A program made the position numbers and the translations under genes. Source: Euglena gracilis (Eukaryota). Taken from it: DNA of 64,000 nt. Under the pieces are notes generated by a model. The model made no database searches. It saw only the letters and a list, made by a program, of their open reading frames with translations, and was not told the DNA's origin. Below, piece after piece: positions 502 through 60,585 of this stretch; position 1 is the first letter of the stretch; the number at the start of each line of letters is the position of its first letter. Location of the stretch: the NCBI GenBank assembly GCA_039621445.1, contig CP154954.1:15580140-15644139 (forward strand). Reading direction: 5' to 3'.

Positions 502-537
502 GACCTTCGCCCGCCGCGATTCGATATCCCACGGCTG
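502..537 (+). CDS. Gene A exon [12 protein letters not shown]
   Basis: Preceded by CTG at -8..-6 (494-496). Paralogous exon at 63846-63881 differs almost only by synonymous changes. Confidence 0.85.
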
Positions 538-3500
538 GGTCTGCCCACTTCTGCCCCTGGTGGCAATGGGATTGGAAAGTCCCTGTGTCCTGGACTCAGA
601 CTGGTCAGCCGCATGGCCCAGCAATGTTCTTACTGTGTTATTATTTTTCAATCTTTTATTATGTTAGTTCATAATTATTATATTTTACATCATTATTGCA
701 TCATAGCATTATATTATTAATTATTATCCTAATATAATATCAGATTTTTTATTTTATTTTAGTATCATATTCTTTATTTCCAACCCTGAACCGAAATCCC
801 TGTTGTTGTTTTTTTTTCTGACAAACTTGTGACAAAAGTCTCTTCAAACTTCATGGTAAAGTTGTGATTCCATTTGGTTTCGCCTGAAATACTTTTCCCG
901 ACCAACATCATTGCATGTTTTCTTGCAAATTTCCGTTTACACCATTCGAAGCCGAAGGGAGTTATATGACTTGCACCGTGGAATAACCCCCCCCCCACCA
1001 GTCATAAACCCTCTCCGCTCCCTTTTTGTTCAAACCCAATCGAGGAAGATTACTTGGCAGGCTACTTGTCCAGTCAGAAGACCCCCAGGGTGGGGGGGAT
1101 GGGGGGGGTCCAGGGCCGGACCCCCCCCCCCCCCCGCCTGGCGGGGTCCTGCACCGGGCTGAATGGGTGGGGTGTGGGCCCCCCCTCCCCAGGGGTATTA
1201 AAAAGATGTCTGGTATTTGGCCCGTCTCTGATGTGGGCGGAGACATGGTTGTTTTTTTCGTTCTCTTCTCCAGCATGAGTTGTATTGGGACTTAGTGCCA
1301 TTTCAGGTGGCCATGTCCTGATGGTTCGGGAGTGGATACCATGTTTGTGTGTGCCAGTGCTGTCTTTGCCTGTGTCTGGAAGAGGGCAGGGGTGCCAGGC
1401 AGCCGCTTTCACTGGCCAGACTTTCACCGTAATGCAAGGCCACCCGGTGTTCTCCCAGGTGTCGGTGATCGGCAGTTTCCAGGACCCCACGGATGACCAG
1501 GCGCGATTTCCTCTTTTGATGAACGTCTCCGCAACCTTTCACACCTTCTTCTTTCAGGTGTGGAATTCGCCCTTTAACTGGTGATTTTTCGAATGGTGTT
1601 TGCAAATGCGTGTGTACCTGTCCCATCTTGAGGTTGCCATTTTTCCTGCTGGGGAGGTGTCACATGGTCCCTCTGACGTGCAAGGTGAGGTAGGTATAGT
1701 TGCATTCAGGTGTCAAAGTCAAGTTGACCACCTGGAGAATAAAAGCTGGGTCTCATTGGCGGGTCATATTGCGAGGGTGGGATGCAAACTCATTTCGTTT
1801 TTTGTGTTTTTGATATTGCCAAAATTTGTGGATTTTTTTGTATTCTTTCCCCTCTGGTTTATTGATTTTGAGAAATTCTGCACTTTGGCCCCGATTTTCC
1901 CCCTAGTTTTGTTAAAGCTTTGTCATTTGTGGCTTTTGCCCTCAAATTGCACATCTTTCGATCCAGGATGCTCCCAAAATCTACATAAAAAATGCATGAT
2001 GAAAATTTTTTTCCTGGAGAATGTGGAAACTTTTCGAAGTCTTCTCCTGCAGAAAAGAGCACATCCCCAGGCATTTTTGAAGGAATTTTCTGCATACTGT
2101 GTATGACCAGGTTATTCAATGGGGGCGGGTTTATGTATGGTGTCGAAGGAGGGTTTATGCCAAAGGGGTTGGCAAGAACCTCCCCCAGATTCCTCCAAAG
2201 GCCCAATGGTGTGATCTGAGGGGGCTGAGTAAGGGGAATATGGGACGATTGGATGGGGTTTGAGGCAAAATTACGAGTCTTGTTCCCTATCGACCCAATA
2301 CTCTCTACAAAAAGTCCCAAATTCACATCCGTTGAGCTTTTCTGACCTCAATGATACCCCAATGTCACTTTTTGGTCAAAATTCATTTTAGAAATCATTT
2401 TAGAAATAATAATTTGATTGGTTGCATCCATCTGATGACAGGAGCAGAGAAACATTCAAGAAAGTTTCCGACAGTGCACACTGTCCCAGTTGCATATACA
2501 TGTGCACAAACACATATGCAAATACAGTGACTGCTTGCAGTTGCCACCAGGGCGTTTTTTTTTTTAAACAACCCCCAGGGGGTCCAGCTCAGAGGCTGAA
2601 AAATTTGTGCTGGCTGGAATCAGGTTGCTGGCTGACCCTCCCGCGCCGCTAGAGGTCCCAGGCTGGAGCTGGGGCCGGCCCAAGGTCGAACTAGGTACCA
2701 AAAAATTGAAAGCGCAAAAAATGTCCAAAAAAACTGCCAATTATGCAAAAAAAAATATATTTTTGGCCCCAATTTTTCCAATCTCAACCTGACCCAATTT
2801 CGCGCATTTTTGACCAATTTTTTGGCCCATTTTTTTTGGTTTTCTTGCCCCCAGGGCAAGAAAACTTGACCCCACCCCCTGGGGGGGTCAGCCAGCAGCC
2901 TTTTTCCAGCCAGTTGCCTTCTTTCGGCCCTGAGATTTTTACTTCTTTATTTATTTATTTAGGTTTATTTATTTCCAGCCACTCTTCGGGTGGCTGCATG
3001 GTAATGGCTTTTTCACTTTCCGGGGCATAAAAAACCATCCTTTTTGAAAAGTCGCAACATCCGCCCCAAAAATTCATCGCCTGGCCCTTATTTGCACCCT
3101 TGGGGAGCTCAACCTGGCGAGGGGGGGGCTTTGTGTTTTTCTGGTTGGTGTTAGATTAGTAGCGTGGCAAAACGTTGCCAAATTTTTCACCTGTGGTCAT
3201 ATAAATCAGATTGTTGGTGGATTTTGAGGATTGTCTTTCGTCGCGCTGCATTTCTTTCAACACAAAGCAATGTGTCTGGTCACCCGTCCAAGGTTTCGCG
3301 TTGCCCCTGCCCCTGGTTCCTACATCCCCACTTTCTTTGTGACGTTCGTGGCGTTCTACAACAATTTCCTCAACAGCACCTCCGGGAACCGCACAGTGTA
3401 CAGCACCCCAATGGCGATGGCCGCCAACGAAAAGGTGTCAGTTCTGGGCTGGGGCCGCCCTGAATTGTTCCGTTCTCTGTTTTTTTTGATTGCAACAGAT

Positions 3501-6500
3501 GAAAGAAGAAAGAAGCAAAAGAGAAGTTTTGTTTCCTGAAGGAAAAATATTATTTTCTTTTGGAGGAAACTCCTGTTCGTTGTATTACTTTTCACCTCTG
3601 TTTCCATCCCTTCCTCCAAATCCATCCTTGTTTCTTTATTTAAGAAAATCGAAGCCGCACTTTTTGACAGATGCATTTTTTTAGGGTTGCGGACAAAGTG
3701 TGGACCCACAAATCAACGTGACGCAGGTGGACCAGATCACAGGAAAGCCAACACGCTTGATTGCGTCTCAACCCGCTCCCTCTGCCTACTACGACAGGCC
3801 CCACCCTCAAAGCCCATTTTTTTGGCCATGCTCATGCTTAAGATGGGGTGTGGGTACCCGGAGACCCTGGGATTTGTGTGTGATTCGAAGAATCTTAAAC
3901 AGAGGACCAAACCGTCAGAAAATGTATTTTTTCTGGTCAAAATATTCAAGGTGCCCAGCATATTCCACAGCTCAGGAATCGTGGCGGGTGGGGAAGTTGC
4001 ATTGTCGGAGTTGATGGCAAGAGAGCCCCCACAGAAGTGGCGAATCTATTTTTTTTACACCTCCAGGCCATGGATCCAGCCAGCCTCAAACCTCATCCGT
4101 ACCCGCACATTGTTGTTCGTTAAATTGGAGAAAATTCACGACAAACATCAGAGGTTTTTTTTTGGTCACACCTTCACACATTTACACATTTACACATATT
4201 TTCACACATTTATCGGGTTGCACATTTGCTCGTCCTCGTCTTCGATTTCTCAACTCCCTGCCCACGCCCCCCCCCCCCCCCCCCCCCCCGGGGCTCAGTC
4301 GTTGTCAGTGTGGCAACCCGCCCTTCCCCCTCCCCCCCAAGAGTGGCGCCGGGCCCCAAGCTGCCGCAGTGGGAGAACGGCTGGCTGCCGACGATGGCGT
4401 TCAACAAGTGGACGGGCCAAGTGGCACTGGTCCGCCGGCAGAGCACAGGGGCCGGCCCGTGGCATCCGTTCCCCCGGGGCTTGTGGCCCCTCATGGAACC
4501 AGGATGCAAGGTGCTTAAAATTGATGTAAAAGGGCATTTTTTTTTGCTCTTTTACAATTTTGAGCCCTCTTTGGGGCCAGCACCCCCCGGGTTGGCCCCT
4601 AGGGGAAGGCACCCCATAGTACCCCATCTGACCCCCCCTTGGGGGGGTTGGGTTTGGGGGGTGCCTGCCCATAGCAGGCACCCCCCAAAACCCAAGCCGG
4701 AGTCGGAGGGGGTGCCTGCCCATAGCAGGCACCCCCTCCGACCCCGGCGCCAAAGGCGCCGGGGACACAGAAAAAGCCATTTTCAATAAAAATTTTCTGG
4801 GTCCCCACCGGAACCCCCGGAACCCCCCCCGGGGGTCTCACCACGCAGCAAACTGGGCCAGAAGCGAAGTTAGCGCCGGCCATAAACAGACAAGAAGCCT
4901 TAGTGCAACTAAGGGGGGGGGGGTGCCTGCCAGGGGCAGGCACCCTGTACCCCCCCCCCCCCGGTCGGTAAGCACAAGCCTGGGGTCAACCACCCCCCAC
5001 CACCTCTTCCCATTTTTCTGGTGGCACCAATTTTTGGACCCAAATTTTTTTTCCCCGCCGCCTTTGGCGCCAGGTGTACTTTGGACCCATTTTGGGACCC
5101 ATGTAGGACGCCTCAAAAACCCCCCAAAACCCCATTTTTCACACCTTCCAAAATTTCAACATTTTCTCAAGATTTTGATTTTGAGAGTATTTTTTGAAGC
5201 AAAAAAATGCCATTGAAAATCCAAAATTCAGTAAAATTTGATTGTGAAAATTTGGTTGTGAAAAATTGTGGTTTTCCATCAAAAAACCATGTGTTTGGGG
5301 TTCAATTTTCAGAAAAAAAATTCAAAAAGTTTCCCTGGCTTACACCCCCGTTTCCCCAAAATTGGTGAAAATGCTGTAGTGGGTGGTGGTCGACCCCCCA
5401 TCCCGGCTGGGATGTCACGGGAGGAAACGTCGTGGGAGGTTGGTTGGGTCGCGACCGGCTGCCGCCCAACCAAATTGTCATTTTGGTTGGGCCGCGGCCG
5501 GCTGCGGCCCAACCAAATCATTTTTTTGGGTTGGTCTGCGGCCGGCCGTGGCTGGCTGCGGCCGGCCGTGACCCAACCAAATCACTGTTGTTGGTTGGGC
5601 CGTGGCGACCCAACCTCCCACGAACCCACCTCCCATGACCTACCCCCCCCCCCCACCTCCCGGGTGGGTGGGTCGACCCCTCCCCCCACCAGGCCTTCCC
5701 GTTCTGCCCTGCCCCCCCCGGGTGGGTGGGTGGGTGGGTCCGGACCCCCTCCCCCCGCCTTGGGTCCTACCCCCCCCTCCCCTAGTCGTACGACCACCCC
5801 TCATTTACGACCACCCCCCGGTCACAGGTTGCAGGTCATGGGGGTGTTATGACCACCCCCCCGGTCACAGGTTGCAGGTTGCGAAAAATTTAACACCACC
5901 TTACCTATGACCGCCCCCTCAGTTACGACCACCCCCCGGTCACAGGTTGCAGGTTATGGGGGTGTTACGACCACCCCCCCTGGTCACAGGTTGCAGGAAC
6001 CCGGTCGTACGACTAGGGGAGGGGGGGGGGTAAAAATCCCCCTGAGGGTCGGCCCCTGGGCCCAGTTCGCAGCCCAGAACGGGACGTGGATGCTGCTGAC
6101 GATCAACATCGCGGCGGCGACCCTCAGCGACCAGCTGCAGAGCGAGCTGGCCGGGTTCCCGGATGGCCAAGTGCCCCCTTCAGGAGTGCGAGGAAGGGAG
6201 ATACCCGCCCCCAGGGCAGAACGGGAATCGGCCAAACAACCAGGGTGGTGGGTGGGGGGTTCGACCACCCCTCCCCCACCACCTCTTCCCGTATTTCCGG
6301 AAGGACCAATTTTTTCGACCGAAATTTTTTTTCCCAAAATGTTTTTTTTTACCCATTTTGGGACCTTTCAAAAAACCCCCAAAACCCCATTTTTTACACC
6401 TTCCAAAAATTCAACGTTTTCTCAAAATTTTGATTTTGAGAGGTTTTTGAAGCAAAAAAATGCCATTGAAAATCCAAAAAAAATCGAAGACAAAAAATGT

Positions 6501-9500
6501 CAGTAATGTCAGTTTTGACTGTGCCAAAATTTGGTGCACTTTTTTTTTGACCTTCTTTTTTTTCCACCCCCCTCCTAAAAACTAGCAATTTTTAACCCTG
6601 AAATTGTTGAGATTTTTTTGTGAAAAAAATGTGGTTTTCCATCAAAAACCATGTACAGTATATGTAGTCATTTTTCAAAAAAAAATAAAAATTTTCACCA
6701 GCCAAAATCCCTGTTAACCCAAAATTTGCGAAAATGCTGTGGTGGGGGGGTTGTATGCATGCATGCATGTACGTACATACGTACGTATGTATGTATGTAT
6801 GTATGTATGTATGTATGTATGTATGTATGTGTATGTATGTATGTATGTATGTATGTATGTATGTATGTATGTATGTATGTATGTATGTATGTATGTATGT
6901 ATGTATGTATGTATGTATGTATGTATGTATGTATGTATGTATGTATGTATGTATGTATGTATGTATGTATGTATGTATGTATGTATGTATGTATGTATGT
7001 ATGTATGTATGTATGTATGTATGTCTGTATGTATGCATGTATGTATGTCTGTCTGTATGTATGTACCTCTCCCCCCCCAAGCCCAATGAACACCCTTGCA
7101 CAATGAACAGTGGTGTTCGGACCGTCTAGATTGTCACCAGATGCTTTTTTTTGTGTCGCCAAGGAAATATTCCTTTGTTGCTTGTCCTCTCCTTGCAGAT
7201 GAGTTCCTCCCAGTTTTCCTTCTTCAAAAATGGCCAAAAATGGCCTAAAATCGCGAAAAATGCCAAAGAAAATAGCAACTCTTTCAAAAAAATTGGCGCT
7301 TTCGTATAGTATACCTAGGAGGGGGCACTGAGACCCCAGCGGTGCCCAGCCTCCTCGCGGCGGGAGGGGGGGCAACGTGTCGAAAAGCATGGCAAACCGG
7401 GCGAGAAATTCTTTTGGTGGTAATGTTTGACCGTCTGAAAACAAACGGATATGCATATGCCGTTCATTGTTGAGCGATTGCACATGCACTGTTTATGCAC
7501 GTTTCAAGGCTACATTGAGAAGGTGACAGAATTAGTGTACACCCATTTCCAATGAACGCCCCCCGTTCGGACCGTCTACATTGTCACCTTAGTGTTCATT
7601 GGGCTGGGTGGGGGGGAGGTATGTATGTATGTATGTATGTATGTATGTATGTATGTATGTATGTATGTATGTATGTATGTATGTATGTATGTATGTATGT
7701 ATGTATGTATGTATGTATGTATGTATGTATGTATGTATGCATGCTTGCATGCATGCATATATGTATGTATGTAACCCCCCCCCCCCAAATAATAAACCCC
7801 CCGGTTTATTATTTGGACACCCGAAGTCGGGGTCCAGGGGGGGTTTATTATTTGGGGGGGTTTATTATTTGGGGGGATTTATTATTTGGGCGGTTTATGT
7901 ATGTATGTATGTATGTATGTATGCATGTATGCATGCATGCATGTATGTATGTATGTATGTATGTATGTATGTATGTATGTATGTATGTATGTATGTATGT
8001 ATGTATGTATGTATGTATGTATGTATGTATGTATGTATGTATGTATGTATGTATGTATGTATGTATGTATGTATGTATGTATGTATGTATGTATGTATGT
8101 ATGTATGTATGTATGTATGTATGTATGTATGTATGTATGTATGTATGTATGTATGTATGTATGTATGTATGTATGTATGTATGTATGTATGGATGGATGT
8201 GTGTATGTATGTATGTATGTATGTATGTATGTATGTATGTATGTATGTATGTATGTATGTATGTATGTATGTATGTATGTATGTCTGTGTGTATGTACAA
8301 ATGTATGTATGTACGTACGTATGTATGTATGGATGGATGGATGGATGGATGGATGTATGTATGTATGTATGTGTGCATATTTATGCCTATAAATATTATG
8401 TGTACATAAATAATAACACCAGAAGGTGAGTTTAATACCTGCTTTCTTGGGGTCACTTGCAGGAGACCGGCTTGTGCTTTTTTTCCGCCAGCCCAATGGC
8501 TACATGATAGCACCCAGCGCTGGCTTTATATTTTGCTGAGTGTGTGATGATGATATGGGGTTAGACAGCAAGGATTTGTAATCCGTGCTTTCCTCTAATG
8601 CCACCCGAATTATGCCATTGCTTGTTGGTGGTCTGAAATGACTCCCCTCGACAATATTCGACATTCAAGGGCGTTCAAGGGGGCTTGTGCCTTGAGTACT
8701 TCTGTTGCTACTTCGTAAATTTGTCAATTCACCGATGACACATTTTTATCATCCTGAGGGATACTATGAAACTAGCAGGGTTTTCTTAAGCCCGAGGGAC
8801 CCTACCTGCGGGGGGTTCAGCCATCCAGCACTTTTTTTCCAGCCAGCACCTCCCTTCCGGGCCAGGCTTGTGCTTAGTCGGGTGCCTACCCCACGGGGGG
8901 GGGTGGGTGCTAGGGGCAGGCACCCCATAGCACCCGATCCGACCCCCCCCCCCCGGGGGGGTAGGGTTTTGGGGGGTGCCTGCCCCTAGCAGGCACCCCC
9001 CTCCGACCCCGGCGCCGAAGGCGCCGGGGGCCCGGAAAAGGCCATTTTCAATGAAAATTTTCTGGGTCCGGCCCGGACCCCTATCCCCCCCGGGGGGGGG
9101 TGTGCCTGCTAGGGGCAGGCACCCTATAGCCCCCCCCCCCCCCCCCCCCCCGGTTGGTAAGCACAAGCATGTTCCGGGCTGCGGACCCCCCCCCCCCATC
9201 GGGGTCCGCTGAAATAAAGTTGTGTCCAGCCCGGCGAAGCCATACTCTACCGAAAATTTTTTGGCGCCGAAAGACTGGAAAAAGAAATTTTTGGCGCCGG
9301 ACTGGACCGAAAAGTGCCGAAAATTTTTGAAATGGAGTCAAGGATGGCCCAAAAATGGCCATTTTGGGTGGTTTTTGGGTTTTTGTCTCCTATTTTTGGC
9401 TGAAAAATGCCAACCCAGCTGGGCTTTTTTGGCATTTTTCGGGTGCCCACCGGGTCCAGCTCCCATACGGGTTCGAACCACCCCACCGGACCCCCCCGGG

Positions 9501-27500: not shown

Positions 27501-30500
27501 TTCAGGACTGTCATAGGTGGGTTGCCGACCGCAGCCGACCGCAGCCGACCGCAGCCAACCGCGCAACTTTTTTCTAATTGATGCCAATTTTTCAGTGAGA
27601 ATGAGGAATTAGGCTCATTTTTATCCCAGATTTTGAGGTTTTTCTGGCTCATCTGGCTCATGTTGTCACTTTTGGCCACTTTTGACCATTTTAGGTCGCT
27701 TTTGTCACATTTTGGCCCATTAGTCACCATAATTCCCCCATTTTGACCTATTTTGACCTTTTTGGACCACTTTTTGCCCACTTTTTGTAATTTTGGGCCA
27801 TTTTGTCGCCCTGGGGCCATTTTGGGCCATCTTTGACCATTCAAGCCATTTTCGACCTTTTTTGTTATTTTTGCCCATTTTTTGGTCTCTTTTTCGTCCA
27901 ATTTGACATTTTTGAGCATTTTGAGCCAGTTTGTTGCCAAAAGTGAACAAAAGCTGCCAAAGTGACCAAAATTGGCCAAAAGCAGAGCCATTTTTGCGCC
28001 AGTTTTGACTTTTTTGGACCACTTTGGGCTTTTTTTTGTTTTTGTCTGTTTTTGGTAACTTTTTGGTCCATTTTAATCATTTTTGACCATTTTTCGCCAG
28101 GTGCAGCTTCTGGAGTCGCAAAAACAGTGGCCAAAGCAGCCTTTCTTTGGCCTCTTTTGCCCACTTTTGGCATTTTAACCATTTTTGGCCACTTTTAGGC
28201 CATATTTTAGGTCACGTTTGGCTGCTCTTGATGTGAAAAGCAACAAACGACGTTTAAAGTGGCCTGAAAGTGGCCAGAAGTGGATAAAAGTGGTCAAAAG
28301 CAGAGAAAAGTGGGCAAAAGAGGCCAAAAGTGGTCAAAAGAGGTCAAAGAAAAGCAAAAGGTGGCCAAAAGCAGCCAAAACACAGCAAAAAGTGGGCAAA
28401 AACAACAAAAGTGACTAAAAGAAAGTGTTATATGCTCATTTTTTGTTGGCCTGCCCCCCCACCTACGGCCGACTATTTTGCCGACCGCTGCCGACCGCAG
28501 CCAACCGCAGCCGACCGCGACCGACCATGACCGACCGCAGTCGACCGCGGGCTAAAATTTGGAATCTGTCATAGGTGCTTGCCTGTAGCCCCCACCTACA
28601 AACCCCTGGATTCAAAAGACATCTGGTCAGCGGAAAGCCGTATTTTATAAGTCAAGGGTTTGTCAAATCCCCAAAGCAATCCCAACCCCCCCCAGATTTT
28701 GTCAGAATTGCGTTTTTTTGATCATGTTCACTCATGTAAAAATTGCCAGAACAATCAGGTTTTAGTGGGTTTCGGCAAAAATGGCGTCCCCAGGTTTTTC
28801 ATTTTCTTCATGGTTCACGTCTTTTGGTTGGGGGGTTATGAGTGTGAGGGTTCCATTATCCTGTGCATCCATTCATGCAGTTTCACATGCGCAACATTCC
28901 GGGTATGTGGAATATTCTGAACTTCAAACCCCCCCCCAGGGTTCGATATAAGGAGGGCGTACATGGTTTAGGTGGGGGGGGGCCGTCCGCCCCCCCCCCC
29001 CCCCCCCCGCCCCCCCCCCGGCCCCCGGGGGGGGGTCCCGGCCCCCCCCCCCCCCCCCACCTGCAAGGGGGGTCCGGACCGACCCTCGGGGGCAAAAATT
29101 GACCCCCCCCAAAAAGGGTCAATTTTTTCCTCCGGCGCTTCGCGCCGAAAATTTTTTGCATTTTTGGCACATTTTTGCCCAAAAAGTGCCCAAAATGGCA
29201 CTTTTGGTCGTTTTGGGGGTCAAAAATTTTCGGACCGGCGCTTCGCGCCGGGCCGAAATTCGGCCACCCTGACCGCGCACCTGTTTAGGTGGGGGGGGGT
29301 GTCCCCCCCCCACACCCCCCCCCCCCCCCCCGGCCCGCAGGGGGGGGGGTCCGGACCACCCCCCCCCCCCACCTGTCCTTATATCGAACCCTGCCCCCCC
29401 CTCTACCGGCCATCTGCCGGCAGAATCCTCTCTCGGGCCCTGGGGCCGGCTGCAGCTACCGCGTCAGCTACACCTGCCTGGGCGACGGGGTGGGCCAGCC
29501 CCCTCCTTGCACATCCTTGGCATATTTTTGGGACGTTTTTGAATGGGTGACTGCGCTGTTAGTTTCAGCGAAGGATGCATTTTTGATTTTATATATTTTT
29601 GTAGTCAAAGACCTTTTTCTGGATATTCTTTCCCAAAAATTGGAACTGGATCTTGGCCAGACTTTCAGTTAGTGCGCCGCACAAAATTTTTTCTGTGCGC
29701 CGCAAGCGCCGCAGGAAAATTTGATTATGCGCCGCAAGCACCGCAGCAAAAAATCCACCGTGCGCCGCCTGTGCCGCAGCAAAAAAATTCCGTGTGCCGC
29801 AAGCGCCGCAGCATTATTTTCACCATGTGTTGTAAGCACTACATTTTAATTTCACCTTTCTTCCCCTAATAAAAATAAGAGTGAGGCCGGTGCTACCATG
29901 GTGAAGCACAGCTTTGCCAAAAGCCCGGGTGTGAGCGCCTTTGTGGTTCAAAGTGCACCACAGTAAAATTTCAGCAAAAAAATTATGTGCGCCGCAAGCA
30001 CCGCAGCAAAAAAAATTTTGCGCCGCAAGCACCGCAGCAAAATTTTGTCCATGCGCCGCATGCGCCGCAGAAAAAAATTTTTGCGCCGCACAGAACTTCC
30101 TGAGTCGCACTAACTGAAAGTCTGATCTTGGCTCGGTGGCTTGCTCACAGACTTGTCAAAGGGATTGTTCCCCACCCCCAAGGCCGGTTGTACGTCGTCC
30201 AACTAGCAGGTTTTTTTCAACCCTGTACCCATGCCCACCGATGAATTTCAATGCCTAGTCACCAAAGGGTGACTGGACGAAAGCAGCCTTGCTGAAGCTG
30301 CGTTTTTTTCCTTTATAATTTTCCATTTTCCCATAAAAATGTAGTATATTTTGGTTTAAAATTTAGGGGGTCCACCTGCCTCATCCGGAAAAGGCGAATG
30401 GCAGCAAGGAAGTTGGCACACACAAATATTTTATTTTCAAACTGAATTTTACCAATTGGCCCAGTTTCGACCCATTTTGTCCTGAGTCGAAAATTTTGAC

Positions 30501-33500
30501 TTATCCTCTGCCCCAATAGAGGAAACAGAAATACTGCACATTTTTCAAACCAAAAGAAATATTTTGAGAAGTAACGAATTCCCAAAAAAAAGAAGTGCGA
30601 GAAATTTCCACTCCTGGTCAATTTCCCCCCAATTTGATCAATTTTGGGGAGCCCGAAGTGAGGCATGATGTGCCCCCCTTGTCCAACGACTGGGATTGTC
30701 TAACAACCTCCCCCAGTCAGGTGCGATCGTTTTGTGTGTGATGTCGGTTTGATCAGTGTAGAACAAATTGTTGATATAATTTGTTTCACAGAAGCTTGTT
30801 TTGTAAATTTTTGGGGTGACAACCACTGAAAACACAAAAAGGGCTCGAAAAAGGGCTGTATGCCCCCCCCCCAAATGGACATGGGTAAAATGACTAAAAT
30901 TGATATAAGTGTGCAAGGTTGCGACAAACGACCGAGATTTTGCTTAAAGTTGGCCAAAAATATGGCCAAATACGATGCCAAAATTGGGCAAAAACCGCCC
31001 AAAATGGCCATGTACCCCGTCTCTGGTCAATTCTCTTTGCTGATTTAGCTCCCCCCCCTGTCTAACGGCCACCCCCCTGGTGGGAGATGAACATTGGCTG
31101 TTTTTGCCACCACCCAAGAAAAATCTTCACCTTTCAGGTGGCAAATTGCCCAATAAAACGGCATCAAAATATTTGTGATGAAATTTGTTATCGCCTCATT
31201 CGCAGGAAGTTTCTGTTCTGGACATGGTCAAACATAGTGCCATAGTTGCCATGTGAATTTTAAAGATATTTCCTTCTGGCACATTCACCCATGTTGGTGT
31301 TGCCCAAGAAGGGCGCTGGCCGGCAACCTTTCCTCCCGTCTGGAAGGGCTGAACAAGAAGTTCGGGCTCAGGCTGCCCCATACCCCCAACTCAAATAAAG
31401 CTGGGTTGAGCAATTTCAAGCAGCCAGCAGGTCTAAAAACCAAGGGCTTGTATGCACCCCCCCTCCCCCCGGTCGGAGGACACCTTTTCAGAGACTTTTC
31501 CAGATTTTGTTGGCCTGGCGCACAGCACTGGGCCGAAAATTTTTGAACCCAAAATTGGCCAAAAATTGACCAGAATGCCATATTTTGACATTTTTTGGGC
31601 AGAAATTGGTCAAAATCGCCCAAAAAATTTCGGCGCAAAGCTCCGAAAGGAAAATTTGGCCATTTTGGGGGGCGTGGAGTACCATGCACCCCCCCCCCCC
31701 CCGGTTGGAGGACACCCCTTCGGTCCCAGCCCCATGTCCAACGACCACCCACCGGTCGTTGAACAAAGGGTAGTTTCTTTATCGGAAGCCAAGCTTGATA
31801 TTTTGATTTACAAGTTGAGGTGTTCGGGATAGTATCCGATGATGCGGGGTGAAATGCACTGGTGGTTTCTGGCCTTCTGTTTCTCTCCCCACTCCGCTGT
31901 GCATCGCTCATCTATTTCCCTTGTCTAAGGTTATGGTATTTTTGTATTTTCAGGGTGAAGAAGTTAACCTTTTTCCAGGCATGGGGGAAATACGTGGCTC
32001 ATTTCTCTGAGTTCTGCAATTCCACACGGGGCAAGAAAAAGCCCATTGAAGGTAAAACAGAAAAAAAAACAGGAAAAGTTTTCAAGGACAAAGTGCATTT
32101 TCCGTGCAGTCAGTTTTGATGCGGTTGAAGATGATAATTTAGCTTGAGTTTTTTTTCTTTGCTCTTTGTAGGTTGACTTGGTGTTTTGGGAAGTTGGGAA
32201 CACACATTCTACAGCTTGTCCGAAAATTTGGCATCGACAACCAAGTGCAATCCATATGTGTTTTTATCATCCAAAAATTGTTTGAAAACACGAGGGCAAA
32301 ACACCCAGGAAAGGTTGTCGTTTTCCAGCCTGTGACGTTGTCATCTCGCCCGAGCGTTTTTGCCTGATCCAGCCCTCGCATTCTCGAGGGTTTTACCTCG
32401 GTTTGTGCCCACTTGTCAGGAACCACCTTCTGTGGGGGGGTGCGCATTGCCAATGCTCAAATCTCAGGGTTTTCCTTTTTTATTATTATCCCAGAATATC
32501 CGCTTCAGGGCGTCGCTCAAGCTGAAGTGAACCTCATCCTCCCCAAGCCGATTTTTTTCCGGTCCCGGACCCCCTCCCCTCCCCATCAACGAGGGTTTTA
32601 AATTATTTTCCAGCCACCCTTTGGGCGGCTGGACGGTAATGGATTTTTTGTTTTTTCTGGTGCAGAAATGGGCCAAAAATGGGCCAAAATCGGGCAGGGC
32701 AGCATTTTGGATGAAAAAAATTCATCACCATTTTTTTTTGCATAATTGGCAGCTTTTTGGGGCGTTTTTGGAGTTTCGATTTTGGCACCCGGTTCGACAC
32801 CCAGACTGGCCCAATTCGAGCCCTGGGACTCCTATGGGGGGGTCCTCTGAGCTCCCCCTCCCTGGGGTCACTCACGAGGTCAGGTGCAGCGTCCGGAAAT
32901 GGAGGTCAGGAGGCGGGGTCTTTGTCTGGAACTGGGTTGTCACTTGGACACCCTGTTCTTCATGTCAGTGCTGGGGGGGGGGGTCGGGGATGGTGGAGGT
33001 GGCGGGGGGGCGACACTCTCCCAAGTGAATGTGGAGGGGCAGCCTGCCGGTGACCTACATTTGTGTCTCCCAGTCCACGTTTGAGGCGTGTCCAGAGGAT
33101 TTCCATTTCAGGCAGCTGGCAAAGGTGACGGTGCCTGGCAAGGCTGCCCAGGCGCCGAGACTCCGACAGAGTTCTCCCCACCCAATTTACCTCGGTACAA
33201 ACAGCTATCAGGCCCGCTGAGCCATCGTCCCCACAAGGCCTTAACCTTCCAGTGGCAGTCATATAAGGTCAGGCTAACTCCAGTTTCTGATGATTTTGAA
33301 GGGCTCGAATTTGTATGCCTTTTTCAAGCGGCCAAGCCATTTTTCTTGTACCTTCGAATCATCTTCATTCTTTCTGACGCAGAGGGCTTTGGCATTCCAT
33401 TTGCTGCTTCTCAATTTGGCATTGTTGACGTGCTATACAGTTGGAAGCCAACCCTTTCTCGGGGACTTCATGCAAGGTTTTGTTGTGCAGAGGCCTCTCA

Positions 33501-36500
33501 TATTTAATGCCAACCCTCGGGGAGGAACCCCTGGAGAGTTTTTTAGAAACTTTGACCCAAAATTGAAACCTAAACTGGTTGCCCCTTCCGAGACCCAGGG
33601 GCACCCCCTATGGGGCGGGTGGTGAGTACCAACCCCTCCCTCCCCTTTGGGTCCTTATTATTAAAATATTAATTATATTAAACACATAATAGTGCATGAA
33701 TTAATTGGATAGGAATACACATAATGTGTTAATTATGAATTGATATATTAAATACACTAAACCCGGGGCAGTTCAAGATTTTATTTTCCGTTTTGTTTGG
33801 CCCCTGCCAGGGAGGTTCTTTCCGTGTACGAGGTGCTATGCACGTACATGGGGTACGCCGCGGCACAAAGCCCAACAGCGTCCGAGCTTCCCGGGGCGGT
33901 CAGCATGGACGTGGAGGAAATGGAGCATCCAAGGGAGATTTACAAGCCTGTCAAGTCACCACCCAGGGATTTCAATGCTCGCTTTGCCATCCCCTGATCA
34001 CATTCTTTTTAGCTTCAGCCTTCTCAGCCATTCACACATCTGTTCAAATTTGGGATATGTCACCTTAAAACAACAATTTCAACATTGCTTCATGATGACC
34101 TCGGTTCACGTTCTTCTGTGGTCAAGCAGCTTTGGACAGTGTGCAAACGTTTTACAGAAAATTGAGAAATTGACGCATTGAATGAAGGCAACAGTGTTGA
34201 AAGTCATCGAAGGATTCAAAAGAGTAGGGAGGTGATACCATTTGGATGCGCACACCCAGCTAACAGATCAACCAACATCCAGATGAGCTTTTGATGAGCT
34301 TCTGATCCTCCCCGCCTTTTCAGACATTATGCTCACGTGGCAGGCGATGTGATTTTTTTTAGATGTTGGAGTAAAACACGATTCTTCCCTCCCTGGGCAG
34401 GAGGGAAACTGTCTTTCCCAACCACATGCAATCATGCACGATGCACCTCCGCAGGCATTTTTCAAGGAGCGACCACAATGCCTGGCCTCAAGTGCCATGC
34501 CAGGCAGGAGCCTGGAAGTCTACACTCCTGTCCACGGCCAGAGATAACCCCCACACAGTTTCCCTCCCCACTCTCTTGGACTTTGGGTTTCCAGGTCTTT
34601 GGGTCCCCCCCCCCCCCCCCCCCGGGCAATTGACGCCCCCGGGCAATTGACGCCCCCGGGCAATTGACGCCCCCGGGCAATTGTCACCCCTGGCTGTGCC
34701 GGCCAATTTGTCACCCCGGGAAATTGTCACCCCCGTCCGTGCTGCCCAATTTGTCACCCCCCCTACAGAAGATGTTTGTGAACTTTCTTTTCACCAACAC
34801 GACTCGATTGATCCTCTATTTCGCCACAACATGCTGAGAAATGTCACATACCAAATGCTCTGCACAATATCACGACCATAGCTGCATTTTTGCGTGTTCA
34901 CTGGTGTTTCAGATGGTGTTTTTGGTCATTTGGATTTAATGTGGCCTACATCGGTGGGCAATTGACGCCCCCGGGCAATTGACGCCCCCGGGCAATTGTC
35001 ACCCCCCTCTGTGCTGGCCAAATTGTCACCCCGGGAAATTGTCACCCCCCTCCGTGCTGCCCGATTTGTCACGCGACAATTGCCCGGGGGGGGGGGGCGG
35101 GTATGGGGCCAGGAAGCAGTTCTCAGGTGCGGCCTGAGATTTGTTCTTCTGGGTCCTGTCTGGGCACCACCCCATCATTGGCCCACTGGTCACCCCCCTG
35201 GGGGGGGTAAGGTGGTAGGGGGGGGGGTCCCTCTTGAGGCTCAATATGAAACTTTGGGGAAAAAATGGCCGTAACTCCGGCCAGGCGGGGAGTTGCGGGG
35301 AAATCAAAATACTGTTAGATAGGGCATTTTAAGGTTTTCAATTTAGGTCTTTGACATTTCTTTTGATTTCCCACCATTTTTGAGAAATTTCAAAAACTTT
35401 ATTCTTTGACCCCCCCCCAAAAAACGCCGAAATCTTTGGCGACCGAAAACTGGAGGTAGGACGGGTCCCCCCCCCCCCTCCTCGGAGATTCCCATACAAG
35501 CTGTCGTCGTCACCCCTCCCTGCCCACCTTTGCGCAGCAGGGGGGTGCCTCCGGCCTGCCCCCAGGCAGGTGCCGTACCACTGGAGACGGGTGGACCGCA
35601 GTGCACTGCTGCGGTCCGCCGTCCGGTACGAGGAGGCGTACACCGCTGTGGCGGCTGGCAAACAGCCCGCTGTGCTGACTCCCCCGCTACTCACAGCCAG
35701 CTTTCCCAATGTTCAGTGGCAGTGGTGCTTCTGCCGGAAATTTTGGACCTCAGGGTCGGAAGACCAGGGACGCCTCATGTTGTATTTCCCGTTGCGCGTT
35801 GATATTGGACACGCCGAAACAGGCAAACAAAACAATTAAAAACCATTTGTGTACCTGCCCCTTCTTTCCCCTGGGCAATTCCCTCCCTCTTGCATGAGGC
35901 CACATCCTTTGTCTTTTTTTTATTATCTTTTTGCAATGGATGAGGGGCAAAAATGCCAGAAGAAAACCATACACAAATGAAGCATGTTGTGTGTTTCTGT
36001 GTGTTTTGTGGAATCTGCATCCCGTCAATTTTCCTGAATTCGTGGAATTCTTGAAATTGGCCATGGATAAGTTTATATCTTATTTGAGGGGCTCTGTAAA
36101 GGGGGGGGGGCAGTTGGATGTGATTCTTCCAGGGTATTTTAAACTCTTTCCTTCAACCAGATTTCCATCTCTCATATCCGACAATAGAGATCTGTCGGAT
36201 GTCGGCGGGGAGGCAAAAAAATGTTTTTGGCAGACCCTGTTTGCAGAACTATGGGTAGCTTCGGAAAGACAGAGAATATTACCCCCCCCCCCGCAAAAAA
36301 CTGACAGGGTGGGTCCCGAGCATCTCTTTAAGGTTTTGCAGACCCCCCCTTCCCAAGGGGGTCTGCAGCAGCCAGCTCCAATTTTGGCCCAGCCCAGCTG
36401 CAACAGCACCTCGGGGGGGGGGGGTGCTGCTTGCCCTGCTATGTGAAGTGCCGAATTTTTTTTGGCAAAAAGTGTTCAAAAATTGGCCCAGAATGGTGTT

Positions 36501-37771
36501 TTGGTGGTGTTTTGGGCGTTTTAGGGGGGTTAGCCAGATGCTCATTTTTTCTCAAAACTGTGTTTCGCAGGTCATTTTTGGGCAATTGTCCTATTTCGGC
36601 CCAGCCCGGCCCAGCCCAGGTCCAGCCAGGGTCCAGCCCATACCATTGCTTAACCCCCCCCCCCCCGGGGGGTTGGTGACTGACTGGTTTTTTTCAGAAT
36701 GACTGACGGGTTTTCTGGCCAAGAGTCCCCCCCCCCCGGGGGGTAGGCCCAAAAATGAAAAAGTGGCTGGCCTGGCGCCAGAATTTTTTTGGAGTTTTTT
36801 GAGACTTTTTGGCAATATTGCTTTGCCAACACGAGCGCATTCAAAGGTGGCTGATCCCCCGGGGGGGGGTAAAGTGACTGACTGGTTTTTTTGGGGGGAA
36901 AAGTTGCTGACTGGTTCTTTCAGAGTGGAAAGTGACCTCCCCTCACCCCTGGGGGGGGGGTCGCTAAGCAATGGTATGGTCCCCCAGCCCAAATTTCTAG
37001 CCCTAGCCCAGCAACCCCGGGGTCCTTAAGGAGATGCATGCTCCTGAGCAGCGGCCGGCGATAGTTCAAAATGGGCCGAGGTTGGCACAGTCCTCTGTAC
37101 CGGTGTCCAGAATGCGCCGTGTACCCTGTGCTGGTGCAGGGGAAATTGTTTGGGCGGAAATAGCCAATCTGGGAAATGCCCAAGGGTTCCCCCCCCCCAC
37201 CCCATCCTTGGGTGGGTAGCCTCCCGCCCCAACTCTCCTTCCCATTTTTCCCGGGGCAGTTTGTAAAAACGATCCTTTGATGCCGAAGGTGTGGGCACCA
37301 TTGGGCACCACCACAGCACACCAGAGAAGTGCCATGGTGGGCGGGTCGTATACATATGGGCCCCACCCACTACGGGGAGGGGGACCAGAAGAAATTCTCT
37401 GCCCCCCCCCCCCCCCGAAAACAGGTTGTCCAAGCCAACCTAGACCTGAACCAGGCAGAAAATATCCCGTTAGATTACAAAAAATCTGGTTCAGGATTTC
37501 GGGACCCAACACCTTATTCCCTGGTTTCTGATCTCAAAACCAGAGGGGGGGGGCAGACAAAATGGAGGTTCACAAGCGACTGCAGGGAAATATGGTGCAA
37601 GTGAAATTAGCACAGCACGCTGCCGGGGACCACCAACGGGCGCGGCAGCTGCTGGCGGCCCACCCGCTGCTGGACCCGTCCGACAAGTCATGGGCCACCC
37701 TGGCTGCCCAGCTGGTGCGCACGGAGGCTGGCCAGCCATGGGACGGCGTGTTCTACTTCACAGAGAAGTAA
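502..37771 (+). CDS. Gene A span: multi-exon transmembrane class III adenylyl cyclase (5' end outside window)
   Basis: Exons join in frame to give extracellular domain, TM ([22 protein letters not shown]), HAMP-like MDRIAQLQF...[24 protein letters not shown], and cyclase motifs [51 protein letters not shown], ending [13 protein letters not shown]. Confidence 0.9.
1403..1494 (+). CDS. Gene A exon (AA)[29 protein letters not shown]; start 1403 (GT-AG reading) or 1408 (stem reading)
   Basis: In frame with both neighbours; downstream intron has CAG at +4 (1498-1500) and CTG at -8 (3307-3309). Confidence 0.75.
3315..3434 (+). CDS. Gene A exon [40 protein letters not shown]
   Basis: Coding-like codon usage; stem-type acceptor; possible GT donor at 3435. 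Confidence 0.75.
3685..3792 (+). CDS. Gene A exon ...[28 protein letters not shown] (boundaries approximate)
   Basis: tttttag acceptor at 3684 keeps frame with the 3435 GT donor; 3' boundary uncertain. Confidence 0.6.
4358..4442 (+). CDS. Gene A exon [28 protein letters not shown] (start approximate)
   Basis: Downstream intron 4443..6063 has a 13-bp terminal stem caggggccggccc/gggtcggcccctg (one G-U). Confidence 0.75.
4585..4950. repeat. AGGCACCC/GGGTGCCT inverted-motif MITE family (also ~8880-9150 and ~15360-15640)
   Basis: Recurrent aggcacccc and ggggtgcctg motifs plus a shared cggcgccnaaggcgccgg core. Confidence 0.7.
5770..6030. mobile_element. MITE with TA TSD and internal ggtcacaggttgcagg repeats
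   Basis: TIR cccc...ctagtcgtacgacc/ggtcgtacgactag...gggg, TA on both sides; second copy at 20807-21069. Confidence 0.8.
6064..6164 (+). CDS. Gene A exon [34 protein letters not shown]
   Basis: GC3-rich codons; both flanking introns have +4/-6 stems; frame preserved. Confidence 0.85.
7066..7619. mobile_element. TA-TSD MITE inserted in (ATGT)n
   Basis: Imperfect TIR cctctccccc...agcccaatgaacac/gtgttcattgggct...gggggagg; TA at 7064-7065 and 7620-7621. Confidence 0.75.
7774..7895. mobile_element. Small TA-flanked palindromic MITE inserted in (ATGT)n
   Basis: ccccaaataataaacccc/ggtttattatttgggg inverted repeats with TA flanks. Confidence 0.65.
8465..8511 (+). CDS. Gene A exon [16 protein letters not shown]
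   Basis: Stems caagtg/cacttg upstream and cagcg/cgctg downstream; joins to ASHGKYF. Confidence 0.85.
10070..12240. repeat. Large interspersed repeat/foldback family with internal inverted copies (also ~14130-14950 and ~35260-35380)
   Basis: gaaatcaaaatactgttagatagggcatt at ~10122 and ~35300 is inverted at ~10825 and ~11793; other blocks recur in both orientations. Confidence 0.75.
13149..13309 (+). CDS. Gene A exon [53 protein letters not shown]
   Basis: Strong coding bias; CTG at 13141-13143 and CAG at 13313-13315 in register. Confidence 0.9.
13804..13830 (+). CDS. Gene A 27-nt micro-exon QSWTAIPEM
   Basis: Both flanking introns have CAG/CTG stems in register (downstream: caggggctgttctta/taagaacacccctg); frame preserved. 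Confidence 0.85.
   Translation, partial: SPGRPFLK
15698..15750 (+). CDS. Gene A exon [18 protein letters not shown] (end ambiguous, 15747-15759)
   Basis: Acceptor stem in register; two alternative 5' stems pair with tctccagccc at ~16020-16029. Confidence 0.8.
16030..16145 (+). CDS. Gene A exon [39 protein letters not shown] (start 16030 or 16033)
   Basis: Open frame with coding bias; downstream stem cgggg/ccccg in register. Confidence 0.8.
16746..16842 (+). CDS. Gene A transmembrane exon [32 protein letters not shown] (apparent +1 G frameshift at 16758-16763)
   Basis: Hydrophobic helix is split across two ORF-track frames at a G6 run. Confidence 0.8.
18096..18154 (+). CDS. Gene A exon [19 protein letters not shown] (HAMP-like)
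   Basis: In frame; downstream intron ends pair (tcactca/tgagtga). Confidence 0.85.
18419..18479 (+). CDS. Gene A exon [21 protein letters not shown]
   Basis: HAMP second helix; downstream stem cagggactttt/aaaaatccctg. Confidence 0.9.
19482..19514 (+). CDS. Gene A 33-nt exon [11 protein letters not shown]
   Basis: FGKFVP cyclase-transducer motif is rebuilt across the junction; CAG/CTG in register on both sides. Confidence 0.9.
20098..20137 (+). CDS. Gene A exon [13 protein letters not shown]
   Basis: CAG/CTG stems in register on both sides; frame preserved. Confidence 0.85.
20481..20587 (+). CDS. Gene A cyclase exon [36 protein letters not shown] (end approximate)
   Basis: Class III cyclase FADIEGFS motif with the first metal-binding Asp; CAG at 20591-20593 suggests the intron starts at 20588. 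Confidence 0.92.
20807..21069. mobile_element. MITE, same family as 5770-6030
   Basis: TIR cccgcccc...gtcgtacgacc, TA flanks, same internal repeats. Confidence 0.8.
22495..22770. repeat. GTGACTGACTGGTTTT repeat family (also ~36660-36965, ~46225-46545, ~53400-53690)
   Basis: Near-identical blocks at several loci. Confidence 0.75.
25276..25374 (+). CDS. Gene A cyclase exon [33 protein letters not shown]
   Basis: R-x-G-I-H-T-G-x-x-x-V-G motif; stems in register. Confidence 0.92.
25455..26180. repeat. Compound (CATC)n/(CATA)n/(CATG)n microsatellite
   Basis: Directly visible. Confidence 0.95.
27430..28578. mobile_element. TIR element with subterminal (ccgaccgcag)n repeats
   Basis: Ends gcacctatg/cataggtgc; ccgaccgcag arrays at both ends; interior switches from T-rich to A-rich. 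Confidence 0.6.
28937..29393. mobile_element. hAT-like MITE, 18-bp TIR cagggttcgatataagga
   Basis: Perfect TIR; poly-C on both flanks is compatible with an 8-bp TSD. Confidence 0.8.
29448..29492 (+). CDS. Gene A cyclase exon [15 protein letters not shown]
   Basis: YT-x-x-GD-x-V motif; upstream stem cagggct/ggccctg. Confidence 0.9.
29658..30124. mobile_element. hAT-like MITE, 19-bp TIR cagactttcagttagtgcg, 8-bp TSD atcttggc
   Basis: TSD at 29650-29657 and 30125-30132; subterminal gcgccgca repeats. Confidence 0.9.
31325..31365 (+). CDS. Gene A cyclase exon [14 protein letters not shown]
   Basis: Catalytic N-x-x-x-R; downstream perfect 11-bp stem caggctgcccc/ggggcagcctg. Confidence 0.92.
33052..33145 (+). 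CDS. Gene A exon [31 protein letters not shown]
   Basis: Resembles the cyclase C-terminal I-x-VS...V-x-V-x-GK segment; CAG/CTG in register. Confidence 0.9.
33812..33924 (+). CDS. Gene A exon [37 protein letters not shown] (3' end unresolved, may reach ~33960)
   Basis: VYE motif follows GK as in class III cyclases; acceptor CTG at 33804-33806. Confidence 0.8.
34620..35095. repeat. GGGCAATTGACGCCCCC 17-bp-unit repeat family (two copies here, another at ~55295-55490)
   Basis: Tandem 17-mers followed by aattgtcacccc motifs; shared downstream sequence between 34620-34830 and 55295-55490. Confidence 0.75.
35564..35659 (+). CDS. Gene A exon [32 protein letters not shown]
   Basis: GC3-rich; downstream stem cagcccgctgtgct/agcacagcacgctg. 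Confidence 0.8.
37628..37771 (+). CDS. Gene A terminal exon [47 protein letters not shown]
   Basis: WDGV...K* tail typical of many bacterial-type class III cyclases; TAA at 37769-37771. Confidence 0.88.
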   Translation, partial: DHQRARQLLAAHPLLDPSDKSWATLAAQLVRTEAGQPWDGVFYFTEK

Positions 37772-47600: not shown

Positions 47601-48689
47601 GCATATTATCCTGTGTCCCTTGCAGGGATCTTTCCCCCTTTTTTACTTTCCTCCTTCTTTGGGCATAAGTAAATGCATGCATTTACATGCATACATGCAT
47701 GCGCGCGTACACACATGCATACATGCAAACATTTACAGGCGTGCATTCATACATGCATGTTTGCACACATACATGTATAAACACTTGCAGGGAATGCTGG
47801 TGTTCAGAATTTGTCTTCTGCCAAATTTTTAGTCCATGAGTGTGTGACCAGTGTTTTCACTTTGCAAACCGTGTGCGGCCCCTTTTACAATGACTGGTCC
47901 AGTCTTGCCACGTCCGTTGCTCGGAGTTCTCCCAAACTCCGACTTCTTTCCTCCCCACTACACAGTCCTCTTTTGCTCAACTTTCTTGTTCGCCACGTTA
48001 CCACATCCTTTAGGAGGAGCCTAATCTTCCAAAGCCAATGAATGCTCAGTGGGCACAATGGTGTCAATGCCTGCCAATGCCAACCAATGCTTACAGTGGA
48101 ATGTCGAAATTTGGCAGAAGGTTCACGTTTGAAGCGCCGAAAGGGAACACCAATGCGGATGCCATTGCTCATCTGGGTTACCTCTGTTTTGTTTTTCCTC
48201 CACCCCAGACACAATAAAATGAACTGAAGCGGGCTGCTTTTTGACTTTTTTTGTCCCCCCCGCCACACACGACCGTTCGCCAGTGTAACTGCAACCAGCT
48301 GCGATGTGGCTGGTGAATGTTGCCCCCCCCCTCCCCCCCCCCGAGCTTTGTCTGCGGCTTTTCTCCACCTGGAAGATGCTCTGCAAATGACATTTTTTTG
48401 TTGTCCCATTGTGTTAATGTTTGAGAATACAATTATTTCATTTTGTTTTGTTTTATTTTGAGTTAATTGAATTGGCATATGGTCATATTAGAAGGTTATT
48501 ATAAAAGTCATACTTGATGTACAGTACACTATTGTGTTTGAATTATATATTATATTTGAATAATGTTTATATTTGTATCACAATCTATATGTTCACACTT
48601 TACTTTTTGTATTTTGCATTTTATGTTAATTTTTGTATTTGCATTATATTGATGTTCATATTTACATTTATATTATGTAAATATTTAAA

Positions 48690-48933
48690 TCTATATTTTT
48701 ATTCATATTTATATTCATTCATTCATCTGTTTATTTGTTTATTTGTTTATTTATTTGTTTATTTATTATATTTTAGTATATTTTATTATATTTATTTATT
48801 CATTCATTTATTTATTCGTTTATTTATTTATTTATTCATTTATTTATTTATTTGCTTATTCATTCATTTTTTATTCATTCATTCATTCATTCATTCATTC
48901 ATTCATTCATTTATTTTTGTATTTATTTATTTG

Positions 48934-48964
<31 letters not shown>

Positions 48965-48979
48965 GTTCATTTATTGTTT

Positions 48980-49011
<32 letters not shown>

Positions 49012-49320
49012 TTTGTATATTCATTCATACATGCATTCATTCATTCATTCATTCATTCTTTCATTCATTCATTCATTCATTCATTCATCCATCCATCCAT
49101 CCATCCATTCGTTCATTCATTCATTCATCCATTCATTCATTCATTCGTTGTTTGTTTGTTTGTTTGTTTTCATTCATTCATTCGTTGTTTGTTTGTTTGT
49201 TTGTTTGTTTGTTTGTTTCTTATTCATTCATTCATTCATTCATTCATTCATTCATTCATTCATTCATTCATTCATTCATTCATTCATTTATTTATGTATG
49301 TATGTATTCATCATTGTTAT
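48690..49320. repeat. (TTTA)n/(TTCA)n/(TTTG)n microsatellite in an AT-rich tract
   Basis: Directly visible. Confidence 0.95.
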
Positions 49321-60449: not shown

Positions 60450-60508
60450 CATACACATGCACACACGCACGGACGCACGCACGCACGCACTCACGCACGC
60501 ACGCACAC

Positions 60509-60571
<63 letters not shown>

Positions 60572-60585
60572 TGCACACACACACG

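Follow-up and report, generated by a model that had tools for sequence, protein, structure and literature searches.

A predicted adenylate cyclase gene of Euglena gracilis, very probably interrupted by nonconventional, stem-defined introns

Introduction

How is a coding sequence put together from exons of 27-161 nt when the introns between them cannot be written as GT-AG without altering the protein? This question is raised by a locus of Euglena gracilis (assembly GCA_039621445.1, contig CP154954.1) in a stretch of 64,000 nt, forward-strand positions 15,580,140 to 15,644,139, which was analysed as a whole and is called the window below; all coordinates count from its first letter. The locus, gene A, occupies 502-37771 on the + strand. 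A reading of the sequence alone had proposed that it is spliced almost entirely through non-GT-AG introns, bounded by a terminal stem in a fixed register. Our analysis indicates that the coding sequence of gene A is very probably divided among 25 or more short exons by euglenid nonconventional introns, which are stem-defined and not of the spliceosomal type.

Gene identity and exon structure

The window is eukaryotic, with approximately 50% G+C and many low-complexity repeats. A cyclase motif lies in one stop-to-stop frame (20226-21137), and a query with 20436-20600, in exon 16, returned 30 proteins at E <= 0.001 from 41 candidates, the best of them 92% identical. All 30 contain PF00211 and all bear EG_transcript or GGOE names in the eukaryote protein set; we take the EG_transcript entries to be the E. 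gracilis transcriptome. Searching these proteins back onto the window with tblastn gave a colinear series of short matches on the + strand, running from about 500 as far as 37768, and then a second chain from about 62100. A profile built from the same 30 Euglena cyclase paralogues found 22 colinear gene A segments on the + strand (1399-37768) and two segments of the second gene, gene B, in ascending profile order and with holes at profile positions 541-583 and 714-744.

Exon-level searches brought in two closer references. Exon 8 matched P0032 (EG_transcript_14991, 401 aa, 98% identical), and exon 18 matched P0042 (EG_transcript_1420, 281 aa), a transcript-derived protein with PF00211 (E 1.6e-11). 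P0032 agrees with exons 1-10 at 302 of 307 residues and P0042 with exons 18-25 at 233 of 235, both without a gap. The best matches are EG_transcript and GGOE proteins at 98-100% identity, as expected of a euglenid host. By this similarity, gene A is predicted to be a receptor-type class III adenylate cyclase paralogue of E. gracilis, belonging to a large paralogous family.

Homology, open frames and protein identity together define 25 exons in the window, amounting to 2046 of the 37270 nt of gene A and ending in a TAA stop codon at 37769-37771. When joined, they yield open frames of 446 aa (exons 1-16) and 235 aa (exons 18-25, up to the TAA). The proposal that excision restores the cyclase reading frame holds for these two frames, though not for the protein as a whole, as 42 codons of P0042 are absent from the window (see below). 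Residues 1-94 of P0032 have no counterpart in the window upstream of 502, so gene A starts outside the window and has further 5' exons upstream. Exon 1 (502-542 or 543, + strand) begins with G, preceded by a CTG at 494-496 and a 5-nt spacer that form the 3' end of intron 0, the 5' end of which lies outside the window.

P0032 also exposed a micro-exon, 8b (13804-13830, + strand), which paralogue-only mapping had overlooked. It is 27 nt long and encodes (Q)SWTAIPEM, in agreement with P0032. The introns on both sides have the form N3-CAG...CTG-N5|R; at the downstream junction a single position fits, at the upstream one three fit equally well. Another five exons measure 33-45 nt. P0042 gave the real extent of exon 22 and an extra exon at 34490-34529. 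The paralogue-only solution, with a single intron at 13312-15687 and earlier sizes for exons 22-24, was rejected because P0032 and P0042 show micro-exon 8b and other exon limits, and a TGG/CCA junction at 13322/15684 was discarded once the micro-exon had been found. P0031, an unnamed database open reading frame of 142 aa, is colinear with the unspliced DNA of 12988-13413, across exon 8 and both flanking introns (141/142 identical); it reflects a gene prediction made on genomic or unspliced sequence and is not a real protein.

Junctions were placed by forming, for each exon pair, all frame-preserving donor/acceptor pairs within about 43 nt (340-617 pairs per intron) and keeping the best-scoring spliced peptides. 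The reference was P0032 for ten gene A introns, P0042 for seven, and eight paralogues each for introns 10-15, with gene B treated likewise; this left 26 evaluable introns, 23 in gene A and three in gene B. Most junctions can slide, with 1-11 equal positions. The junction peptides of 17 of the 23 gene A introns are those of near-identical cDNA proteins, point substitutions aside, and the junctions of introns 10-15 (6/23) are backed by their paralogues. In gene B, P0013 (100% identical) supports the removal of introns B2 and B3 at the protein level, and P0035 (88%) that of B1.

Splice code and register

A code for euglenid nonconventional introns, 5'-N3CDG-/-CH'GN5-6|R(exon)-3', has been published from knock-in point mutants, spacer indels and fully synthetic introns (Nomura 2025, PNAS, PMC12501133). 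It fits 15 of the 23 gene A introns and one of the three gene B introns, and all 16 of these are CAG/CTG. In 13 gene A introns (2, 5, 7, 8a, 8b, 13, 14, 15, 17, 19, 20, 21a and 22), CAG at +4..+6 is combined with CTG at -8..-6; the sequence-only reading had seen this pattern and counted 12. In introns 11 and 18, CAG keeps its place and CTG lies at -9..-7, leaving a 6-nt spacer. Intron B2 had been credited with CTG at -8..-6; its CAG and CTG are indeed present, but the CTG is at -9..-7. A strictly fixed register was therefore too strong a claim: the 3' spacer is 5 nt in 13 gene A introns, 6 nt in two, and 7 nt in intron 12, where CAG/CTG falls outside the register.

Among the introns with N3-CAG...CTG-N5, all on the + strand, the downstream exon starts with G at introns 2 (1495-3314; P0032 junction peptide DPTDGSYIP), 8b (13831-15697; junction unique), 13 (18480-19481), 14 (19515-20097), 15 (20138-20480), 17 (25375-29447), 19 (31366-33051), 20 (33146-33811) and 22 (35660-37627; 11 equal ties). 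It starts with A at introns 5 (4443-6063; junction unique), 7 (8512-13148; 4637 nt), 8a (13310-13803) and 21a (33961-34489). The two introns with N6 are 11 (16843-18095), before G, and 18 (29493-31324), before A. Introns 17, 18, 19, 20, 21a and 22 were placed with P0042, and introns 11, 13, 14 and 15 with paralogues. Intron 17 contains a microsatellite or low-complexity array at 25854-26029.

The first intron base is a purine in all 16 code introns. So is the first downstream exon base, in 16/16 code introns (with the motif scored without the purine condition) and in 5/5 other in-register introns, bearing out the earlier remark that purines are usual at both positions. The last upstream exon base is a pyrimidine in ten of the 16.

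This agreement far exceeds chance. When donor and acceptor were moved independently by 30-120 nt, 2000 trials gave a mean of 0.2 matches in 26 introns and a maximum of three, against the 16 observed. Sliding the acceptor gave 16 matches at offset 0, 13 at +1 and 0-2 at all other offsets; the peak at +1 is expected because spacers of 5 and 6 nt are both allowed. An earlier slide test on the paralogue-only junctions found the motif in 10 of 20 introns at offset 0, versus 0-3 at 18 other offsets. A looser test, accepting any complementary triplet within +/-12 nt, was uninformative: -9 apart, each slid offset gave a positive result for 8-19 of the 20 introns.

Ten introns lie outside the code, and five of them have another complementary triplet in the N5/N6 register, where 1.1 would be expected (P about 0.003). 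Intron 1 (543-1400, + strand, as are the following) shows CAC/GTG, a spacer of 6 nt and Y|R at each of its two junctions, and slides by 1 nt. Intron 3 (3447-3714) has TGG/CCA, which is not a C-D-G motif, with a 6-nt spacer before an exon starting with A. Intron 6 (6165-8464) has CAA/TTG with a 5-nt spacer before G; it also contains microsatellite or low-complexity arrays at 6785-7065, 7619-7739 and 7896-8331. Intron 9 (15757-16035) has GGG/CCC with a 6-nt spacer at 15756/16036 and three equal ties (d = 15754-15756). The fifth is intron B3, with a second TGG/CCA.

Introns 4, 12, 21b and B1 have no complementary in-register triplet. Intron 4 (3792-4356), which slides by 1 nt, sets CAG at +4..+6 against CCG at -8..-6, an A-C mismatch. 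Intron 12 (18157-18420), supported by paralogues, has CAG at +4..+6 and CTG 7 nt from the exon, outside N5-6, with eight equal ties (d = 18149-18156); in the earlier slide test its match came at offset -2. Intron 21b (34530-35563) has six equal ties (d = 34524-34529), ends in CTG-N5|A and finds its matching CAG at +10..+12. The boundaries of intron 10 (16146-16746) are uncertain: a hand-reading with CGG...CCG and a 6-nt spacer before G keeps the frame and differs from the paralogue-best junction, in a region covered by paralogues and no near-identical cDNA.

Four other complementary triplets had been reported in the same register. CAA/TTG in intron 6 and TGG/CCA in B3 stand, TGG/CCA in intron 3 and CGG/CCG in intron 10 appear only with a 6-nt spacer, and CTG/CAG in intron 9 falls away. 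The junction behind the last (15760/16040) was rejected, as it gives GDVQC where P0032 and a paralogue have GTLQC.

Pairing of the intron ends

We tested terminal pairing by joining the 12-mers from the two ends of each intron with U7 and folding them. The mean energy is -9.6 kcal/mol over 26 introns, versus -6.9 for 650 mismatched 5'/3' pairs and -2.7 for segments taken 40 nt inward, and all 26 terminal folds are below zero, as befits introns with a terminal stem. Folding of the intron ends had been proposed as a check on the sequence-only reading, and in this form it supports it, since the ends pair more stably than both controls. Among single introns, the energy is -18.1 kcal/mol for 8b, -17.5 for 17, -16.9 for 8a, -15.6 for 5 (with a 9-bp in-register stem), -14.6 for 9, -13.6 for 18 (with a perfect 7-bp terminal stem, GGCCAGC/GCTGGCC) and -7.5 for 1, and intron 19 has an 11-bp in-register stem. 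The fold of the whole of intron 8a also pairs both ends (z -2.55).

These features suggest how the introns would be removed. In the pre-mRNA, the intron ends would pair through a stem whose core is CAG at +4..+6 with a CUG that leaves 5 or 6 nt to the downstream exon; neighbouring pairs usually lengthen it (CCAGG/CCUGG). This stem would set both junctions side by side, and an activity would cut on its upstream side at 3 nt from the 5' arm and on its downstream side at 5-6 nt from the 3' arm, before a purine, after which the exons would be joined. The exon order, the protein-level junctions, the motif, the spacers, the purines, the terminal pairing and the lack of GT-AG are observed at this locus; the need for motif, spacers and purine, and the exit of the intron as a circle, would carry over from the literature by analogy. 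The excision machinery was described as unidentified in the sequence-only reading, and the Discussion of Nomura 2025 (PMC12501133) still calls the trans-acting factors unknown. The further suggestion that pairing matters more than sequence went too far, as the same study found pairing at the middle position alone to be insufficient.

Several points weigh against this account of gene A. Eight of its 23 introns do not fit the published code, and intron 15, folded as a whole, does not exceed its shuffled versions in stability (z +1.30). Where a junction had 2-11 equal positions, the code-fitting one was chosen; this biases the result towards the code, but the same freedom was allowed in the displaced and slid controls. 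The support for the junctions is at protein rather than nucleotide level, from proteins that are 98-99% identical and not identical: they differ from the window at 5/307 and 2/235 residues, and may therefore derive from an allele or a sister copy. Finally, the window copy lacks the 42-codon exon and has a shifted frame in exon 11. The window copy of gene A is itself presumably transcribed and spliced, and the last two points bear on whether it works.

State of the gene copy

Between exons 16 and 18, P0042 has 42 codons (SIVQHNGTIDKFIGD...LAMQA) that include the cyclase metal-binding segment DKFIGD. Searches for this exon over the entire window and in both orientations, using segments of P0042 and of paralogues, found nothing above chance-level alignments. 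A complete class III catalytic domain, including DKFIGD, is thus not present in the window copy, although its membership of the PF00211 family is certain. The interval between the two exons (20595-25275, + strand; ...YFEAMCS / SVMDLH...) ends in CTG-N5|A at 25268-25276. By hand arithmetic, a direct splice at 20594/25276 is in frame but has no complementary triplet, and a CAG-based donor at 20587 combined with 25276 is out of frame; both were set aside.

Over its 4.7 kb, the interval carries 100%-identical direct repeats of 110, 60, 54 and 40 nt. Two copies of a repeat of about 260 nt lie at a distance of 474 nt immediately before exon 18 (24458-25190); the perfectly identical blocks in them measure 110 nt (24492-24601, 24966-25075) and 54 nt (24656-24709, 25118-25171). 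The perfect 60- and 40-nt repeats form a second pair, at 23522-23673 and 24122-24309.

At 16747-16765, exon 11 shows an apparent +1 frameshift across a run of six G (G6, 16758-16763), so that VAILG and AVSAVAV fall in successive frames. All 12 paralogues with the DKKG motif have the counterpart, F(V/A/I)ILG-V(V/I)S..., in a single frame. The run may have been assembled wrongly, as a homopolymer, or may be a genuine lesion. Its base count decides whether intron 10 is a CGG/CCG nonconventional intron or a GC..AG intron behind a C-rich tract.

With the 42-codon exon absent and the exon 11 frame shifted, the window copy may be defective or mis-assembled. It is quite possible that gene A is a dead or mis-assembled copy that makes no functional cyclase, its motifs being a legacy of a working sister copy from which the transcripts come. 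The loss of DKFIGD, the shift in exon 11 that sets it apart from 12/12 paralogues, the perfect repeats in the interval where the missing exon is expected and the seven substitutions against the cDNA proteins would all fit this. On the other side, the remaining 24 exons are open, 98-99% identical to the cDNA proteins and free of gaps and stops, so any decay must be very recent, and both defects are of a kind typical of assembly errors. A dead copy is in any case compatible with the intron class, and bears only on whether this copy works.

A more elaborate possibility, which we consider rather unlikely, is that the copy is a real haplotype or recent duplicate that has lost a 126-nt exon in frame, perhaps through recombination between the repeats, and that its eight non-code introns (of 23) are natural exceptions that extend the code. 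Near-identical cDNA proteins imply the removal of six of these eight. If true, the in-frame exon loss would have produced one intron of 4.7 kb by fusion, and a naturally occurring receptor cyclase that is catalytically dead.

Conventional splicing as an alternative

Could the introns instead be conventional, with GT-AG or GC-AG sites a few bases away and CAG/CTG incidental? Among the junction positions that reproduce the peptide, GT-AG occurs in 0/26 introns and GC-AG in 1/26, intron 6, where a shift of one base downstream gives a GC..AG reading equal in score to the nonconventional one. For every other intron, the best GT/GC-AG alternative among the 340-617 pairs adds or changes residues, at a cost of 7-43 BLOSUM units per reference. 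In intron 3, a hand-read, frame-preserving GT..AG pair (3435-3684) was rejected, as it replaces VSVL (VSIL in P0032) with ten other residues, and in intron 22 a GT..AG pair at 35648-37615 was rejected for a V to H change against P0042. Nearby GT-AG junctions in cDNA had been named as what would speak against the sequence-only reading; checked against the cDNA proteins and paralogues, none of the 26 introns has one that keeps the peptide.

The conventional U2-type signature (5' GT or GC, 3' AG, a polypyrimidine tract) is accordingly lacking, with the possible exceptions of intron 6 and of intron 10 if exon 11 has an extra G. Intron 10 ends in AG behind a long C-rich tract, like the conventional E. 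gracilis introns of Gao 2024 (PMC11170887), and would be GC..AG if the G6 run has an extra base. Introns 9, 12 and 21b can also be written with a 5' GT. Set against the absence of any GT-AG tie, the altered peptides and a motif that holds one register in the slide tests, a conventional origin of these introns is highly improbable. That GT-AG gene finders would miss the gene was also foreseen; they do fail here, and so does paralogue-guided mapping, which missed the micro-exon and two further exons.

Even less credible is the idea that the terminal complementarity is a by-product, without a role, of G+C-rich and repeat-rich sequence: complementary triplets often turn up around the junctions (within +/-12 nt, in 8-19 of 20 introns at all slid offsets but -9) and mismatched ends still reach -6.9 kcal/mol, but CAG/CTG stands in the frame-preserving register in 16/26 introns against 0.2 expected, and published point mutations of CAG or CTG abolish splicing (Nomura 2025, PMC12501133).

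Gene B and the rest of the window

A second cyclase paralogue, gene B (61051-64000, + strand), starts with an ATG at 61051 and is cut by the window end. Its exons lie at 61051-61091, 62075-62215, 63492-63591 and 63846 to at least 63887, and it is identical to P0013 at 78/78 residues and to P0035 at 95/108. Its three introns, all on the + strand, are B1 (61092-62074), which is outside the code, B2 (62216-63491), which has N3-CAG...CTG-N6|G, and B3 (63592-63845), which has TGG/CCA with N5 before G. Just before the ATG, a T8 run and CAG (61038-61053) resemble a conventional 3' splice acceptor, which makes them a candidate site of spliced-leader trans-splicing.

The spacer of 23 kb that separates the paralogues (38000-61000) contains 14 stop-to-stop frames of at least 170 aa, all low-complexity or repeat-like and none convincing. 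It has intergenic microsatellite or low-complexity arrays at 48505-49393 and 60405-61000, and its G+C content drops to 29% at 48-50 kb. Rfam gave no matches in the window.

Comparison with known nonconventional introns

The sequence-only reading had assigned these introns to a known class, that of the euglenid nonconventional introns, and the motif, spacers and purines do match those of Milanowski 2014, Gao 2024 and Nomura 2025. With the code of Nomura 2025 (PMC12501133), gene A shares the 3-nt 5' spacer, CAG, CTG, the 5- or 6-nt 3' spacer, the purine that opens the exon and a stem extending past the triplet. Coverage is also similar: the code accounts for 65% (15/23) of gene A introns and for 61.2% of nonconventional introns in E. 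agilis, with CGG-CCG and CTG-CAG listed as variants there. The CAA/TTG, TGG/CCA, CAC/GTG and GGG/CCC triplets, the 7-nt spacer and the A-C mismatch found here belong to the published 38.8% without the signature, and show no difference in kind.

In E. gracilis itself, Gao 2024 (BMC Genomics, PMC11170887) described 16,151 nonconventional introns with CCAGG at +3..+7, CCTG at -9..-6 and terminal pairing. The introns analysed here share this consensus, the slidable 'ss-variant' junctions and the tandem repeats; in that survey, 10-nt ends fold at -2 to -10 kcal/mol. Milanowski 2014 (MBE, PMC3935182) had based a model on 74 introns of tubulin and other genes, to which this locus adds 26. The model has CA/TG at +4,+5 and -7,-6, a purine opening both the intron and the downstream exon, and a preferred pyrimidine closing both the upstream exon and the intron. 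A review (PMC11282704) places the pairing at positions +4,5,6 and -8,7,6 and has the excised introns as circles. According to both that review and Nomura 2025 (PMC12501133), circular RNA from E. gracilis nonconventional introns was obtained by Guminska et al. 2021 (J Mol Biol). The test of circles versus lariats proposed for gene A has thus already been reported for other introns of the same class (PMC11282704).

The intron class with its CAG/CTG register, spacer lengths, preferred purines and triplet variants has been described before, as has circular excision, and nothing here is new in kind. As the rule is already in print, the finding is a correct re-derivation of it on one gene. The value of the locus as a dense test set was likewise put too high, as genome-wide intron sets and tests with knock-in and synthetic introns have been published. 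It carries little weight for discovery and serves better as a clean textbook case, a worked example. Which enzyme cuts and joins these introns is a real biological question, to which the locus brings us no closer.

Gene A stands out a little in one respect, its uniformity. In Gao 2024 (PMC11170887), 12,186 of 28,337 introns (43%) are GT-AG or GC-AG, and in Nomura 2025 (PMC12501133) 28% are conventional. At this locus, by contrast, 0/26 introns are GT-AG, intron 6 is possibly GC-AG, and intron 10 would be so only with an extra base in exon 11. The gene is therefore unusually uniform, though of the same kind as those described: if introns are independent, a 24-intron gene without GT-AG goes beyond what the published nonconventional share of 57-72% would predict.

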